In this document: positions 6,198 through 34,301 of the stretch, one piece after another
How the letters are laid out: each line of letters starts with the position of its first letter
Numbering within the stretch: the first letter of the stretch is position 1
Source: Escherichia coli
Lineage (GTDB): Bacteria; Pseudomonadota; Gammaproteobacteria; Enterobacterales; Enterobacteriaceae
Reading direction: 5' to 3' (one strand)
NCBI RefSeq assembly: GCF_003019035.1
Contig: NZ_CP027447.1
Length of the DNA: 64,000 nucleotides
Position numbers and translations under genes: made by a program
Notes under the pieces: generated by a model
Databases searched by the model: none
The model's input: only the letters and a program-made list of their open reading frames with translations
What the model was told of the DNA's origin: nothing

Positions 6198-6620
6198 ATG
6201 CAGCATGATTTATTTGAACACGATCCGGCAATTCGCCAGTTAATCGGACATATTGATAACATCCCGGCCCCGGAACTGGAATCACGCTGGCCCCGTTCGG
6301 TGGTTGATCTGATTGATGTTCTGGAAAACGAACTGAAACGCCAGAACGTCAGCAATCCCCGTGAACTTGCCCGTAAACAGGCCGTTGCCCTGTCCTGTTT
6401 TCTGGGGGGGCGGCAGTTTTACATCCCCTGCGGCGATACTATCCTGACCGCGTTACGCGACGATTTGCTTTACTGCCAGTTCAATGGTCGTAACATGGAA
6501 GAACTGCGTCGCCAGTACCGCCTGTCCCAGCCGCAGATCTACCAGATTATTGCCCGCCAGAGAAAGCTGCATACACGACGTCATCAGCCTGATCTGTTCT
6601 CACCTGAAAGCCAGAAATAA
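6198..6620 (+). CDS. C: C, late gene transcriptional activator
   Basis: 140 aa, Mor/C family; position matches Mu. Confidence 0.85.
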   Translation: MQHDLFEHDPAIRQLIGHIDNIPAPELESRWPRSVVDLIDVLENELKRQNVSNPRELARKQAVALSCFLGGRQFYIPCGDTILTALRDDLLYCQFNGRNMEELRRQYRLSQPQIYQIIARQRKLHTRRHQPDLFSPESQK

Positions 6621-27693: not shown

Positions 27694-29048
27694 TGTTTTA
27701 TATTGATAACGACAGCGGCGTAACCGTCATGCCGCCCGTATCCGCCCAGCGTAGTGCTATCGTTCGCTGGTTTTCAGAAGGTGACGGGAATAATGTTATC
27801 ACATGGCCCGGCATGGACTGGTTTAATATTGTTCAGGCGGAGTTATTAAACACGCTGGAAGAAGCTGGTATTCAACCGGATAAAACAAAATTAAACCAGC
27901 TTGCACTGTCCATTAAAGCCATTATGAGCAATAACGCGCTGCTGATAAAAAATAACCTCAGCGAAATTAAAACTGCCGGGGCATCAGCACAGCGTACAGC
28001 ACGTGAAAATCTGGATATCTATGATGCCAGCCTGAACAAAAAAGGACTCGTTCAGCTAACCAGTGCCACTGACAGCCCCAGTGAAACGCTGGCAGCCACC
28101 GCAAAAGCGGTGAAAATTGCGATGGATAATGCCAATGCCCGTCTGGCAAAAGACCGGAACGGAGCAGATATTCCCAATAAGCCGCTGTTTATCCAAAACC
28201 TCGGTTTACAGGAAACGGTAAACAAGGCTGGTAACGCTGTTCAGCGTTCTGGCGATACAATGACCGGAAAACTGAATCTACCACAGACATCTGCATTCGG
28301 CGTTAATACCGATAATGCACTGGGTGGTAATTCCATTACTCTCGGAGATAACGACACCGGTATTAAACAGGGCGGCGATGGTGTCCTTTTATTCTATTTA
28401 AATGGACAACTGATATTTGGGCTTCAACCCACATCCGCTGATTTTTATAAGCGAGTTGCCTACATTCATCAGGGAGTAGCTCCAGATGGGAGTGGCGCAT
28501 TTGCAGACCAGTTAAATAATGCCACCGCGCCTTTTGTTCAGACGCAGTTTGCCTGGAATCCCACTCCTGGCGGTCATTACGTACCGATAGCTAAGGGCTT
28601 GTCCATTCGCAATGGACAGGGGTATCCAGGTGCGGTCAGCTTTGGTTATTTACTAACTGAACAAATGGGATTTCCCATACCATGCATTCATATGCGTGGA
28701 GATTACGGAGCTGATGCTTTGTGGCAGTTTAACCCGAACGATAAATCTTTTATTTCACCGGGGGCTCTTGTTGCGGGTGGCATCCGTTATAACACCGATG
28801 GAAATATATTTGGCGGGTGTTGGGGTTCAAATTTAGCTGATTATCTCAATAGCACATATGTAAGAGACATTCGACTTGGTAGCGCAGAATCAATATCAGC
28901 ATGGCGAGGCCCTGGTTACTGGGATACTTCTGGATATGTTCTGACCGCAGCCGGAAACAGCAACACCGATGAATTTATTGATACATTAACCAGAAGGCCT
29001 ATTCAGAAGTTGATTGGTGGGACATATTATAACGTTGTGAGTATTTGA
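27693..29048 (+). CDS. S: Tail fibre protein S: constant part outside the G segment, variable part inside
   Basis: 451 aa; gix site at 28188-28215 lies within the gene; C-terminus YYNVVSI parallels the S' C-terminus WYNVASV. Confidence 0.8.
28188..28215 (+). repeat. gix recombination site (left) for Gin invertase
   Basis: TTATCCAAAACCTCGGTTTACAGGAAAC; inverted copy at 31023-31048 with one mismatch in the 26 aligned bases. Confidence 0.85.
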
Positions 29049-29049
29049 C

Positions 29050-29577
29050 ATGATGCATTTAAAAAACATTAAAGCAGGGAACCCAAAAACACCTGAACAA
29101 TACCAGTTAACCAAAAAAGCTGGAGTGGTCTGGCTTTATACTGAAGATGGTAAAAACTGGTACGAAGAACAAAAAAACTTTCAACCAGATACTATAAAAA
29201 TTGCATACGATAAAAATAATGTGATTGTTACCGTAAGCAAAGATGTTTCAACGATTAACCCGGAAGGTTTAAGTGTTGTTGAAGTATCCGATATTACGGC
29301 AAATCGTCGCGCAGACAATAACGGAAACTGGATGTTTCTGGATGGTAAAGTAGTAAAGCGGGAATATACAAAACAGGAGCTGCAACAGCAGGCAGAGTTA
29401 CAAAAATCCGCTTTGCTTTCCGAAGCGGAGTCTGTGATTCAACCGCTGGAACGTGCTGTCAGGCTGAATATGGCAACTAATGAGGAACGCGCACGACTGG
29501 AGTCATGGGAACGCTACAGTGTTCTGGTCAGCCGTGTGGATACGGCAAATCCTGAATGGCCACAAAAGCCTGAATAA
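29050..29577 (+). CDS. U: Tail fibre assembly protein U
   Basis: 175 aa; paralogous to the U' ORF on the opposite strand. Confidence 0.8.
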
Positions 29578-29582
29578 AAATT

Positions 29583-29602
29583 AAGGCCCGATAGCGGGCC
29601 TT
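29583..29602. terminator. Hairpin between convergent U and U', possible bidirectional terminator
   Basis: AAGGCCCG-ATAG-CGGGCCTT; A/T-rich flank on the U' side. Confidence 0.5.
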
Positions 29603-29605
29603 GTC

Positions 29606-30139
29606 TCATTCTGGTTGTTCCGGGAATGTTACAGGAAGAACAGAGGTATCTGTGGCATCAACCTGCTGCATGTATAACATCCAGTTAATGAGTCTTTGCC
29701 TGTCTGAATCGCTGATAATTCCCAGCGCAAGCTGTGTTTGCCAGCACTGCGTTTCCTCTCTGGCCTGTCGCAGCAAAATCTGTTTCTGAATTTCAGCCAG
29801 TTGACGTAGTTCTTCATCAGTCCGGGGGCGTTTCATGACCTTGCCATCCTGAAACACCCAGTCACCGAGAATATCGGCCCGGCGATTCGCTGTCGTGTCG
29901 GGTAATTCGACAACGCTCATTCCTTCCGGGTTAATAGACGACACATCTTTTTCAATATAGCGAATGATACCTCTGTCATCGTAAGCGATTTTTAGTGTGT
30001 CTGCCTGAAAGGCTTTTTGTGCCTCATACCAGTTCTGACCATCTTCAGCGTAAAGCCAGATAACACCATGTCTCTTTGTTAACTCATACTGTTCCAGTGT
30101 TTTAGCATTACCCGCTTTTATGTTCTTTAAGTGCATCAT
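29606..30139 (-). CDS. Tail fibre assembly protein U' (silent in this orientation)
   Basis: 177 aa, same N-terminus as U ([11 protein letters not shown]...). Confidence 0.8.
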   Translation of the reverse strand: MMHLKNIKAGNAKTLEQYELTKRHGVIWLYAEDGQNWYEAQKAFQADTLKIAYDDRGIIRYIEKDVSSINPEGMSVVELPDTTANRRADILGDWVFQDGKVMKRPRTDEELRQLAEIQKQILLRQAREETQCWQTQLALGIISDSDRQRLINWMLYMQQVDATDTSVLPVTFPEQPE

Positions 30140-30140
30140 A

Positions 30141-30998
30141 TTAAACGCTCGCTACATTATACCAGGTGCCATTTATATACTTTTGAACGGGTCTGTAATA
30201 AACGCCCGCTATATTATCGGCAGAGTTGGACCCTGTATCCTGAACATTAATACCAGACAATACATGACCTGACGGGCACTTGAAATTCCATGTTTGCCAG
30301 TTGTTCACACCATGATATTGCTGTGAACCAAGACGAACATCTTTTACGTATCGGGAATCAAAGTTACTCCAGTTACTTGGTTGTATGTGACCGTTTACAG
30401 CAAATATCACCGAATTATCTGTATTTCGCTGACTATAGAAATGCCAGCCTGAATCATCACCAAGCTCTGCAACAGTTGGTCTTGATGAAGTGCCCCATAA
30501 ATTAAAACCTACGTTTTTCGTGGAGTTGTTGGAGCTGGATAGCGTGAATTTTTTACCATCCCCGGCCTGAACGTTTTTAAAAGCAATAGCAACTCCATTC
30601 TGAAAGCGGAATACTCGCTGACTATTAGCGTAAACATCCAGAATACCGTCTCCATTCTGTTTAAATCCGGTATCATTATCACCAAGAACAATAGAGCTAC
30701 CACCTAACGCATTCGTCGTACCAACTCCAAGGCTGCCATTAATGACGGCATTAACAAGAATATTTAGTGCATCCCATTTCAGCGTCATCAGGTCTTTTGT
30801 TGTGGTGCTTTGTTTGCTTCTCCATTTGAAATATTCATTGCCGTTGTCGCCTGTTTCAAACCACATGTATGAATCAGTGTCACCATCGGCATCATTTTTA
30901 AATCCAATCTTCGCCCAGTCAGTATTTCGAATCCAGGCAAGGATTGAGTCATTTTCAAAAGTAAGCCCACCGGACAAAGTATCGCCATTTTTTTGCAC
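30141..30998 (-). CDS. Alternative tail fibre variable part S' (promoterless, silent in this orientation)
   Basis: 285-aa ORF from first ATG; real reading frame should run from the gix site. Confidence 0.75.
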   Translation of the reverse strand: MQKNGDTLSGGLTFENDSILAWIRNTDWAKIGFKNDADGDTDSYMWFETGDNGNEYFKWRSKQSTTTKDLMTLKWDALNILVNAVINGSLGVGTTNALGGSSIVLGDNDTGFKQNGDGILDVYANSQRVFRFQNGVAIAFKNVQAGDGKKFTLSSSNNSTKNVGFNLWGTSSRPTVAELGDDSGWHFYSQRNTDNSVIFAVNGHIQPSNWSNFDSRYVKDVRLGSQQYHGVNNWQTWNFKCPSGHVLSGINVQDTGSNSADNIAGVYYRPVQKYINGTWYNVASV

Positions 30999-31022
30999 GG
31001 CATTACCAGCCCTGTTTACCGT

Positions 31023-31102: not shown

Positions 31103-31684
31103 GTGCTGATTGGCTATGTAAGGGTATCAACAAATGACCAGAATACAGACCTGCAACGAAACGCTCTTGTTTGTGCAGGATGTGAACAAATATTTGAAGA
31201 TAAATTAAGCGGAACAAGGACAGACAGACCTGGATTAAAGCGCGCTTTAAAGCGTCTTCAAAAAGGTGACACACTGGTTGTCTGGAAACTGGATCGCCTC
31301 GGGCGAAGCATGAAACATCTGATTTCTCTCGTCGGAGAACTACGGGAGCGAGGGATTAATTTTCGCAGCCTTACTGACAGTATTGATACGTCATCCCCAA
31401 TGGGGCGTTTTTTCTTCCACGTTATGGGTGCCCTGGCTGAAATGGAACGAGAACTAATCATCGAGCGAACGATGGCTGGACTTGCTGCCGCCAGAAATAA
31501 AGGCCGTATTGGTGGGCGACCACCTAAACTAACCAAAGCGGAATGGGAGCAGGCCGGGCGTTTATTAGCACAAGGAATCCCCCGCAAGCAGGTTGCATTG
31601 ATCTACGATGTGGCCCTGTCAACTCTGTATAAAAAACACCCCGCGAAACGAGCGCATATAGAAAACGACGATCGAATCAATTAA
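31103..31684 (+). CDS. gin: Gin serine DNA invertase
   Basis: Probable GTG start at 31103 (VLIGYVRVSTNDQNTDLQ...), 193 aa; serine recombinase resolvase/invertase family. Confidence 0.9.
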   Translation: MLIGYVRVSTNDQNTDLQRNALVCAGCEQIFEDKLSGTRTDRPGLKRALKRLQKGDTLVVWKLDRLGRSMKHLISLVGELRERGINFRSLTDSIDTSSPMGRFFFHVMGALAEMERELIIERTMAGLAAARNKGRIGGRPPKLTKAEWEQAGRLLAQGIPRKQVALIYDVALSTLYKKHPAKRAHIENDDRIN

Positions 31685-31778
31685 ATCGATCGGTAATACA
31701 GATCGATTATGCCCCAATAACCACACTCAACCCATGATGTTTTTTAAGATAGTGGCGAATTGATGCAAAGGAGGTGAG
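31665..31778 (+). promoter_or_regulatory. com-mom promoter region with three clustered GATC Dam sites
   Basis: GATC at 31670, 31688 and 31701; CCCCAATAACC C-box-like motif; GGAGG ribosome-binding site before com. Confidence 0.65.
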
Positions 31779-31967
31779 ATGAAATCAATTCGCTGTAAAA
31801 ACTGCAACAAACTGTTATTTAAGGCGGATTCCTTTGATCACATTGAAATCAGGTGTCCGCGTTGCAAACGTCACATCATAATGCTGAATGCCTGCGAGCA
31901 TCCCACGGAGAAACATTGTGGGAAAAGAGAAAAAATCACGCATTCTGACGAAACCGTGCGTTATTGA
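31779..31967 (+). CDS. com: Com, zinc-finger translational activator of mom
   Basis: 62 aa with CxxC...CxxC; overlaps the mom reading frame. Confidence 0.85.
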
Positions 31968-32634
31968 GTATGAAGGCCAGATTGTTGGCTATGGTTCAAA
32001 GGAGCTGCGCGTTGAAACCATATCCTGCTGGCTGGCCCGCACAATTATTCAGACAAAGCACTATTCCCGCCGTTTTGTGAATAACTCTTACCTCCACCTG
32101 GGAGTGTTCAGCGGACGCGATCTGGTTGGCGTTCTCCAGTGGGGATATGCCCTTAACCCCAACTCAGGTCGTCGTGTCGTGCTTGAAACGGATAACCGGG
32201 GCTATATGGAGTTGAATCGCATGTGGCTACACGACGACATGCCCCGCAACTCTGAATCACGGGCCATCAGCTACGCGCTGAAAGTTATCAGATTACTGTA
32301 TCCGTCAGTGGAGTGGGTTCAGTCCTTTGCTGACGAACGCTGCGGACGCGCAGGCGTTGTGTATCAGGCGTCGAATTTTGATTTTATTGGCAGCCATGAA
32401 AGCACGTTCTACGAGCTGGATGGTGAGTGGTATCACGAGATAACGATGAACGCAATTAAGCGCGGTGGACAACGAGGCGTGTATTTACGGGCTAATAAAG
32501 AGCGTGCCGTGGTGCACAAATTTAATCAGTATCGCTACATCAGGTTCCTGAACAAGCGAGCAAGGAAGCGACTAAATACTAATCTATTCAGGATCCAACC
32601 ATATCCAAAATCAACTCTGACTAGTATCAAATAA
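31888..32634 (+). CDS. mom: Mom DNA modification protein (anti-restriction adenine modification)
   Basis: 248-aa ORF from first in-frame ATG, overlapping com; real start uncertain. Confidence 0.8.
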
Positions 32635-32769
32635 CTTATTTATTCCTGCTGAAAAGCAGCTCCTCATGGCATAAAATTGTTCACGTGAGTTTAAAATGAC
32701 CAAATGGCAGTACAGTATTTGGTCATTTTATGGGGTGAATTTTAAAGTCAAAACGATGGTAAGGTGCAT

Positions 32770-33105
32770 ATGAAAAAAATACTCATAGCAGTACTACTTT
32801 GCTTTGGTGTTCTTTCTGCTAATCAGGCAATAGCGGCTGTTACCTTAAGCGGTAAGTATCCTGCATGCATATCTGCTAATGAATTCGAGCGATTAAGCTC
32901 AATTTTGCAACACGAAGATCAAGAGGCGTTTGAAGAGATCTTTAAGACATCATGCTTTATGCCTAAAAAGGGGGTTAAAGTTGATAAAGTTGTTTCTATG
33001 GGGTGGACCAGTGGAGTTGCGCATGTCAAAGTTTATGTAAAAGGCAATCTTTACGATCTTTGGACTAACACCGAAAATCTTCAGTCCGAGAAGGCTGGTA
33101 AATAA
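32770..33105 (+). CDS. Small secreted protein of unknown function between mom and the Mu right end
   Basis: ATG at 32770 preceded by AAGGTG; signal peptide MKKILIAVLLCFGVLSANQAIA; mature part ~90 aa with two Cys; AT-rich. Confidence 0.55.
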   Translation: MKKILIAVLLCFGVLSANQAIAAVTLSGKYPACISANEFERLSSILQHEDQEAFEEIFKTSCFMPKKGVKVDKVVSMGWTSGVAHVKVYVKGNLYDLWTNTENLQSEKAGK

Positions 33106-33330
33106 CGCTGTAATCAACGTGTAATCACATCTCCTACCAGCTATCGCCTGATAAAGTTAGGTGATAGCTATTTCAATACTCTCTAGTTTCACTGAAAGCA
33201 CGAAACTTAATACCTCCATTCCAGATTGCTTAATAATCGAGCATTTTTATCTTGAATGTTTTTGCGCGCTTTATCAGCCATACCCTAAGTGATCCCCATG
33301 TAATGAATAAAAAGCAGTAATTAATACTGC

Positions 33331-33407
33331 TGTTTCATTTGAAGCGCGAAAGCTAAAGTTTTCGCATTTATCGTGAAACGCTTTCGCGTTTTTCGTGCGC
33401 CGCTTCA
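33331..33407 (+). repeat. Mu right-end terminal sequence with MuA transposase binding sites (attR)
   Basis: TGTTTCATTTGAAGCGCGAAAG and TTTTCGCATTTATCGTGAAACG repeats; terminus ...CGTGCGCCGCTTCA. Confidence 0.85.
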
Positions 33408-33412
33408 TTCAG
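33408..33412. repeat. Candidate 5-bp target-site duplication copy (TTCAG)
   Basis: First five host bases after the Mu end; the matching copy would flank the off-window left end. Confidence 0.4.
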
Positions 33413-33706
33413 GGTGAACGTCCACTCTTTTTGATCGTCAGACGCTTTCCAGCTACTTGCCAGATCGCCTTCAACGTCGGTTGAGCCTTTATCACCGTCC
33501 GTTTTGTACTGAACCAGTCGCTGATAAGACGGGTAGGTCACTGTCCAGTCGTTATTATCAATTGTCACCGCTGGGTCGAGGGTTTGTGGGTCGGCAGCTT
33601 TACCGATCACCAGCATATCTTTCGGTACGGCGGCGTGCGCAACCGGCATTGTTGTGGCAAGGACGATCGCGAGCAATGTAGGACGAAACAAAATCGATCT
33701 CTTCAT
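33408..33706 (-). pseudogene. ddpA: ddpA 5' fragment (D-Ala-D-Ala dipeptide-binding protein), truncated by the prophage
   Basis: Signal peptide and N-terminal ~99 codons (MKRSILFRPTLLAIV...DQKEWTFTL) run straight into the Mu terminus. Confidence 0.8.
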
Positions 33707-33719
33707 GACAGTTTCCTGA

Positions 33720-34301
33720 TTAACTGGCGTGCTGTGTGCCAGGGGATATAAAACAGGTGAATTGATCAGCGAGTAGTGGGTAACTCGCTGCCTGGGGTAA
33801 TTCGAAGTGCCACCATTCGCTCGGGATACCGACAAAGCCACCGCCAGTCATAATCGCATTCAGCAACAGCCGATTGCGCTGAGCGGCTGGCGGGACGGAA
33901 GGGTGATAAGCATGGGAACGTTCGTGCATTTCATCGAACTCTGCACCCATATCCAGTATGTTCCCGTGCTCATCACGAAGCGTCAGGTCGATCGCTGTGC
34001 CACGGCTGTGATTAGAACCGACCGCCACATCAACAACATATTGCGGGTCTGGGCAGGCTTGCCACAACATCGCCTGTGCTTGTTGTGGGCGATACGCATC
34101 GTAAATCACCAGTTGTAAGCCTGACAGCTGGGCGATACTGATACTTTTCGCCAGCGCAGTAATCGCATCCTTGTGTAACAGACAACGCGCTTGCTGATAA
34201 ATAGCTTTGCCTGTGATGTTATCAGCACAGGCGTATTTCAATTCGATCTCCAGATCAGGGAAGATCACGGCTAAATCAACCAGTTCGGTGGTATCCGACA
34301 T
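33720..34301 (-). CDS. ddpX: D-Ala-D-Ala dipeptidase
   Basis: 193 aa, VanX-like. Confidence 0.9.
   Translation of the reverse strand: MSDTTELVDLAVIFPDLEIELKYACADNITGKAIYQQARCLLHKDAITALAKSISIAQLSGLQLVIYDAYRPQQAQAMLWQACPDPQYVVDVAVGSNHSRGTAIDLTLRDEHGNILDMGAEFDEMHERSHAYHPSVPPAAQRNRLLLNAIMTGGGFVGIPSEWWHFELPQAASYPLLADQFTCFISPGTQHAS

Follow-up and report, generated by a model that had tools for sequence, protein, structure and literature searches.

The three GATC sites clustered at positions 31670, 31688 and 31701 almost certainly belong to Pmom, the region that controls the com-mom operon in a Mu-like prophage, and the sequence of this region is identical to that of phage Mu. The window, that is the whole stretch of 64,000 nucleotides analysed here, shows 100% identity to Mu (AF083977 and NC_000929, 35549-35989) over the 441 bp from 31560 to 32000; this is the result of the comparison with the published mom regulatory sequence which the initial annotation had proposed as a check. 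At the matching bases, the Mu record AF083977 carries the gin 3' end, a 'late promoter, PMID 2522923', com and mom. The element is the classical Mu Pmom and is already known. The proposal that the cluster matches the known Dam/OxyR arrangement of mom is supported by the identity to Mu Pmom and by the conservation of the GATC array across mom loci, with the dependence on Dam and OxyR itself taken from the literature.

Prophage setting and anatomy of the control region

Positions 1-33407 of the window are collinear with Mu 3733-36717 at 97-99% identity and therefore represent a Mu-like prophage from gene B to the right end. The prophage is inserted in E. coli ddpA. Host DNA extends from 33408 on, and the flanking ddpX/ddpA sequence is 99-100% identical to E. 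coli. The junction between ddpA and the right end of the prophage was found in no complete E. coli genome of the collection searched. The 31560-32000 region is present in 46 of 5,426 complete E. coli genomes. Zero differences from Mu were observed over 635 bp (31460-32093) covering the gin 3' end, the control region, com and the 5' end of mom. This patch sits in a 1.6-kb block which is otherwise about 3% diverged from Mu, and it could represent either a recent recombination patch or strong constraint.

The genes around the promoter are those of Mu (Table 1). The Gin protein is the same as Mu Gin (0 differences), so all the differences from Mu in gin are synonymous. The com ORF has 62 codons and its product is identical to Mu Com, and Mom is a protein of 238 aa which matches Mu Mom save for about 15 C-terminal residues. 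As in Mu, com (31779-31967) overlaps mom (31918-32634) downstream of the promoter and gene C is present in the same phage; it is intact and shows two substitutions relative to Mu C. The Mu record carries an RBS annotation for mom. The minimum free energy fold predicts a stem-loop around the mom start, which we take to be the translation-inhibition structure. The 76-nt segment with this stem-loop has a fold z-score of just -1.0, and the stem-loop is therefore not independent evidence.

Table 1. Features of the com-mom control region and its surroundings in the window
Feature	Position in window	Strand	Position relative to +1	Basis or remark
Gene C, late transcription activator required at Pmom	6198-6620	+		140-aa ORF; Mu annotation
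gin (G-segment invertase)	31103-31684	+		ORF; Pfam Resolvase + HTH_7; Mu annotation
OxyR-consensus-like stretch	31658-31712			three overlapping registers of the 37-bp consensus
GATC site 1 (Dam target)	31670-31673		-87 to -84	in PvuI site (CGATCG at 31669)
GATC site 2	31688-31691		-69 to -66	in PvuI site (CGATCG at 31687)
GATC site 3	31701-31704		-56 to -53	abuts the C-binding dyad
Dyad TTAT-N6-ATAA, presumed site of late activator C	31707-31720	+	-50 to -37	
Weak core promoter	31720-31750	+		hexamers assigned by sequence reading
-35-like ACCACA	31720-31725	+	-37 to -32	
T6 run	31740-31745	+	-17 to -12	inside the 19-bp spacer
-10 TAAGAT	31745-31750	+	-12 to -7	
Transcription start (+1) of the com-mom operon	31757	+		indirect anchor: published primer
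com, zinc-ribbon translational activator of mom	31779-31967	+		Pfam Zn_ribbon_Com, E = 2.7e-9
RNA stem-loop	31901-31923	+		MFE fold; encloses mom Shine-Dalgarno (31907-31910) and GUG start (31918)
mom, DNA adenine modification enzyme	31918-32634	+		Pfam Mom, E = 2.4e-75
ddpA fragment	33408-33841	minus		interrupted near its 5' end; abuts the prophage right end
ddpX	33720-34301	minus		host gene

The layout read by the initial annotation was confirmed in its details. The three sites span exactly 35 bp; the layout expected at Pmom is three GATCs in a stretch of about 43 bp, immediately before the site bound by C. The gin stop codon TAA lies at 31682-31684, so GATC site 1 falls inside gin, within its last codons. 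The cluster is situated upstream of both the proposed C-box-like motif, CCCCAATAACC at 31712-31722, and the com ATG at 31779. Most of CCCCAATAACC lies within the TTAT-N6-ATAA dyad, and the 'C-box-like' motif corresponds to the right half of this dyad, which is presumably the recognition element of C. The ATAAC core of CCCCAATAACC is common to three other late promoters of the prophage, namely Plys (CCATAATCCC), PI (GCATAACCCC) and PP (CCATAACCCC).

The transcription start was positioned through a published oligonucleotide. The 'mom reverse primer' GGAATCCGCCTTAAATAACA, stated in PMC3378877 to anneal downstream of mom +56, maps to 31813-31832 in the window, which places +1 of the com-mom operon at 31757. 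According to PMC3378877, the -35 and -10 elements of Pmom are poor, their spacing is suboptimal and a T stretch is present; the same features are found here, with the C site overlapping the weak promoter. A consensus sigma-70 scan gave no match at Pmom, which is expected for a weak, activator-dependent promoter and is uninformative. Digestion of Pmom with PvuI yields fragments of 60, 18 and 182 bp (PMC3378877); the two PvuI sites at 31669 and 31687 are 18 bp apart and fit the published 18-bp fragment.

Mu Pmom (AF083977 35650-35770) does not differ at any base inside the element; the three GATCs, the C dyad, the weak promoter and the overlap of com and mom are all shared. The surrounding prophage, unlike the element, is a Mu variant with synonymous changes in gin, another Mom C-terminus, other G-segment contents and an extra cargo of 670 bp. 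The contents of the invertible G segment (28238-31010) differ from those of Mu, with a U-like gene 79.6% identical and the variable S/S' part largely unalignable save for a 302-bp inverted match near the right boundary; a different host-range module is therefore implied. The cargo of about 670 bp (32604-33273), absent from Mu, separates the mom stop from the Mu right end (33274-33407). It contains an ORF of 111 aa (32770-33105) with a signal-peptide-like N-terminus, preceded by a sigma-70-like promoter (32649-32677) and a 10-bp inverted repeat (32696-32726). No match was found for the protein in Pfam or in PLSDB plasmids, nor for the cargo DNA in the 5,426 complete E. coli genomes. The sole relative, 57% identical, is located at the right end of Yersinia phage vB_YenM_42.18, and in D108 the same slot holds a different 'D108-specific protein'. 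The control regions of D108, SfMu, Mu_3F6, PhiR68_1 and the Yersinia vB_YpM Mu-like phages are 98-100% identical over the 441-bp region (98-99% for D108, SfMu, Mu_3F6 and several of the Yersinia phages), and their few substitutions are placed between the functional elements.

Published control of mom by Dam, OxyR, C and Fis

Transcription from Pmom is governed by Dam and OxyR (PMC3378877), and phase variation is not known for mom (PMC2909390). C binds at a site that overlaps the promoter. By unwinding the DNA it recruits RNA polymerase, and it later assists promoter clearance via the beta' subunit; its production is limited to lytic growth (PMC4461284). Translation of mom needs Com (PMC3378877). 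Fis has sites at -123, -98, -49, -38 and +3, with footprints from -107 to -84 and from -60 to -22, and occludes the polymerase; its repression of Pmom is additive, and Fis is not described as a methylation reader. As the sequence is identical, the Mu mechanism is taken to apply here; what has been published on this sequence in Mu is the basis on which we infer OxyR binding, its sensitivity to methylation and the parts played by C and Fis. E. coli encodes both dam and oxyR.

According to this mechanism, the three GATCs would be located where the host repressor OxyR binds. Once the sites are methylated by Dam, OxyR would not bind; when they are unmethylated or, to a lesser extent, hemimethylated after replication, OxyR would bind and block RNA polymerase. 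Even without OxyR, the promoter, with ACCACA and TAAGAT separated by a 19-bp spacer, would still be too weak to fire. C on the TTAT-N6-ATAA dyad beside GATC site 3 would recruit the polymerase and help its escape from the promoter, Fis would form a further layer of repression, and, once the transcript is made, Com would allow mom to be translated. Lifting the OxyR block is required for mom expression but is not enough, as the phage activator C must also act on the promoter and Fis represses it further.

The placement of an OxyR-like sequence is consistent with this. The 37-bp OxyR consensus, with 20 specified positions, is matched at 12/20 from 31658, 13/20 from 31667 and 12/20 from 31676. In a scan of the 64 kb only 10 positions reach 13/20, nine other positions of the window thus matching the consensus equally well or better. 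The match therefore appears consistent in placement and modest in strength, being weak as a predictor and not diagnostic. In the work of Sun and Hattman of 1996, OxyR reportedly protects -104 to -46 and C protects -55 to -28, which we take to correspond to 31653-31711 and 31702-31729 in the window.

A likeness to agn43 (Ag43/flu) raises the question of heritable switching. At agn43, the GATCs are placed in a single OxyR repressor site, and methylation abolishes OxyR binding and permits transcription (PMC2909390). The same players and the same layout are found here, with three GATCs inside an OxyR site near the promoter, the repression by OxyR being known from the literature (PMC2909390). If Pmom behaved in the same way, OxyR would shield the GATCs from Dam in some lysogen lineages and the promoter would be a heritable, phase-variable ON/OFF switch. 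This is improbable. The agn43 system is chromosomal, shows heritable ON/OFF states and needs no extra activator, whereas Pmom also requires the phage protein C. Since C is confined to lytic growth, an ON or OFF state in the lysogen would have no phenotype until induction. The gtr operon of P22 and opvAB of Salmonella are also similar in the competition of OxyR and Dam at GATC sites and in being phage-borne or horizontally acquired operons for surface or DNA modification. They differ from Pmom, which has one repressing region, in that OxyR has several alternative sites there and activates or represses according to their occupancy.

Less probable still, and very unlikely overall, is that the methylation signal is read mainly by a factor other than OxyR, either SeqA on GATCs left hemimethylated by replication or Fis, with a minor role of OxyR in a dam+ lysogen. 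Fis footprints do overlap GATC sites 1 and 3. These two sites are also 31 bp apart, about three helical turns, with a 31+13 arrangement in some relatives, a geometry that in our analysis may suit SeqA pairs, and the OxyR consensus match is just 12-13/20. Published work nevertheless assigns the dam dependence to OxyR (including PMC2909390 and PMC3378877), SeqA is not implicated at mom in the literature on Pmom control consulted, and repression by Fis is described as additive. OxyR remains the preferred reader of the methylation state.

Conservation of the GATC array across mom loci

The density of the GATC sites by itself says little. The window contains 181 GATCs against a shuffle mean of 234, that is fewer than expected. 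The window holds two clusters of three GATCs within 35 bp, the other one being at 34245/34253/34263. This second cluster (34245-34266, 22 bp) is situated within the first 20 or so codons of the coding region of the host gene ddpX. Sites placed at random would give at least one such cluster with a probability of 0.45 over the window as a whole, and of 0.08 over the prophage part, which is poor in GATC (62 sites in 33.4 kb). The cluster alone is therefore not beyond chance and would be no basis for a functional claim; as stand-alone evidence it was rejected as statistically not significant. Its significance comes from the 100% identity to an experimentally characterised Mu sequence and from phylogenetic conservation.

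Conservation was analysed in close Mom relatives, comprising 43 loci from IMG/VR and 77 from species-representative genomes. Among 14 distinct control regions of the Mu class, variation affects 92 of 171 columns and leaves all 12 GATC positions untouched (P = 6e-5; P = 0.008 after leaving out the most divergent sequence). Measured from the mom start, the three GATCs of the IMG/VR relatives of the Mu class lie at -248/-230/-217. Across 554 kb of mom loci there are 27 instances of GATC-N14/15-GATC-N9-GATC, all of them directly upstream of a mom gene or, in one locus (L119), of a mom remnant; the N9 spacing between sites 2 and 3 is kept in every relative with three sites. The array was also found where the flanking and intervening bases are unalignable with Mu (L043, L047, L059, L067 of Pantoea persica and L119 of Sodalis). 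Altogether, its spacing variants included, it is present upstream of mom in at least eight otherwise unalignable backgrounds from Escherichia, Salmonella, Edwardsiella, Pantoea, Sodalis and Symbiopectobacterium. Given the densities observed, a 300-bp upstream region would contain three GATCs within 50 bp by chance with a probability of 0.001-0.03 per locus.

Variants of the spacing were observed as well. A 31+13 arrangement occurs in L041, Edwardsiella (L049) and Symbiopectobacterium (L050), and a 13+18 arrangement in L048, a locus without com. L048 (2384-2418, 13+18) and L050 (about 2424-2471, 31+13) are enterobacterial loci lacking com, with the array 24-111 bp upstream of mom.

A further class of loci carries two sites. 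BLAST with the Mu regulatory region against the close Mom loci gave no match in about 20 of them. This blank was considered as an artefact and the explanation was rejected, the loci forming a true different promoter and com class. In these roughly 20 loci Mom is 93-98% identical, but the com gene (MDSVR...), the gene upstream and the promoter all differ from those here. The loci keep only two GATCs, which are separated by 18 bp within ATAG-N7-CGATCGATAACATCATATCGATCG, about 215-235 bp upstream of mom (L017, L021, L022, L026-L032, L034-L040 and L046). This class is evidence that control regions are exchanged as modules. Among the collected loci the array is absent from those of Serratia, Yersinia frederiksenii, Y. 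artesiana, Endobugula and Parathalassolituus. It is likewise missing from loci of marine gammaproteobacteria and from alpha- and deltaproteobacterial loci; the latter two groups showed no consistent GATC cluster upstream of mom, GATC being frequent in these GC-rich genomes.

A natural control is offered by Salmonella phage SJ46, which is P1-like. Its relic (L124; KU760857 33633-33871) retains the gin 3' end, Pmom and the first com codons at 88.7% identity and lacks mom. All three GATCs are mutated in it (GCTC, GGTC and GATT), and so are both dyad halves (TTGT and ATAG) and the -10 hexamer (TTCGAT). At this divergence, the probability that all three tetramers are mutated is about 0.055, so the control is suggestive and not decisive. 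Taken with the invariance above, the array appears to be under purifying selection across very different mom promoters and to decay once mom is lost.

That the cluster is a chance feature of the gin-com intergenic region without a regulatory role, as its random probability of 0.45 in the window and the second cluster in ddpX might suggest, is extremely improbable, since the sequence is identical to one with published Dam/OxyR dependence, the GATCs are invariant amid varying surroundings, the same three-site spacing recurs upstream of mom in unalignable promoters and nowhere else in the 554 kb, and all three sites are gone in the relic of SJ46 that lacks mom. Identity and conservation together exclude a purely chance origin of the array, which we consider effectively refuted.

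Significance of the array for mom regulation

Pmom is a textbook example of DNA methylation used by bacteria as a transcription signal, and of a toxic phage gene kept under several layers of control. In the window, a Mu-type com-mom operon is present intact, together with its native control region. The conservation of the GATC array provides independent support for the published mechanism, drawn from sequence alone. The comparative pattern is a small addition and does not represent a new kind of system. The natural two-site and com-less variants could be used to dissect the number of GATCs needed for discrimination by OxyR.

Whether the three-GATC array, with its N14/15+N9 form and its 31+13 and 13+18 variants, is a portable Dam-sensing cassette seems to us evenly balanced. 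If it is, the two-site and com-less variants should differ in their response to Dam and OxyR, and epigenetic gating of mom would be a lineage-restricted, separately selected module and not a peculiarity of Mu.
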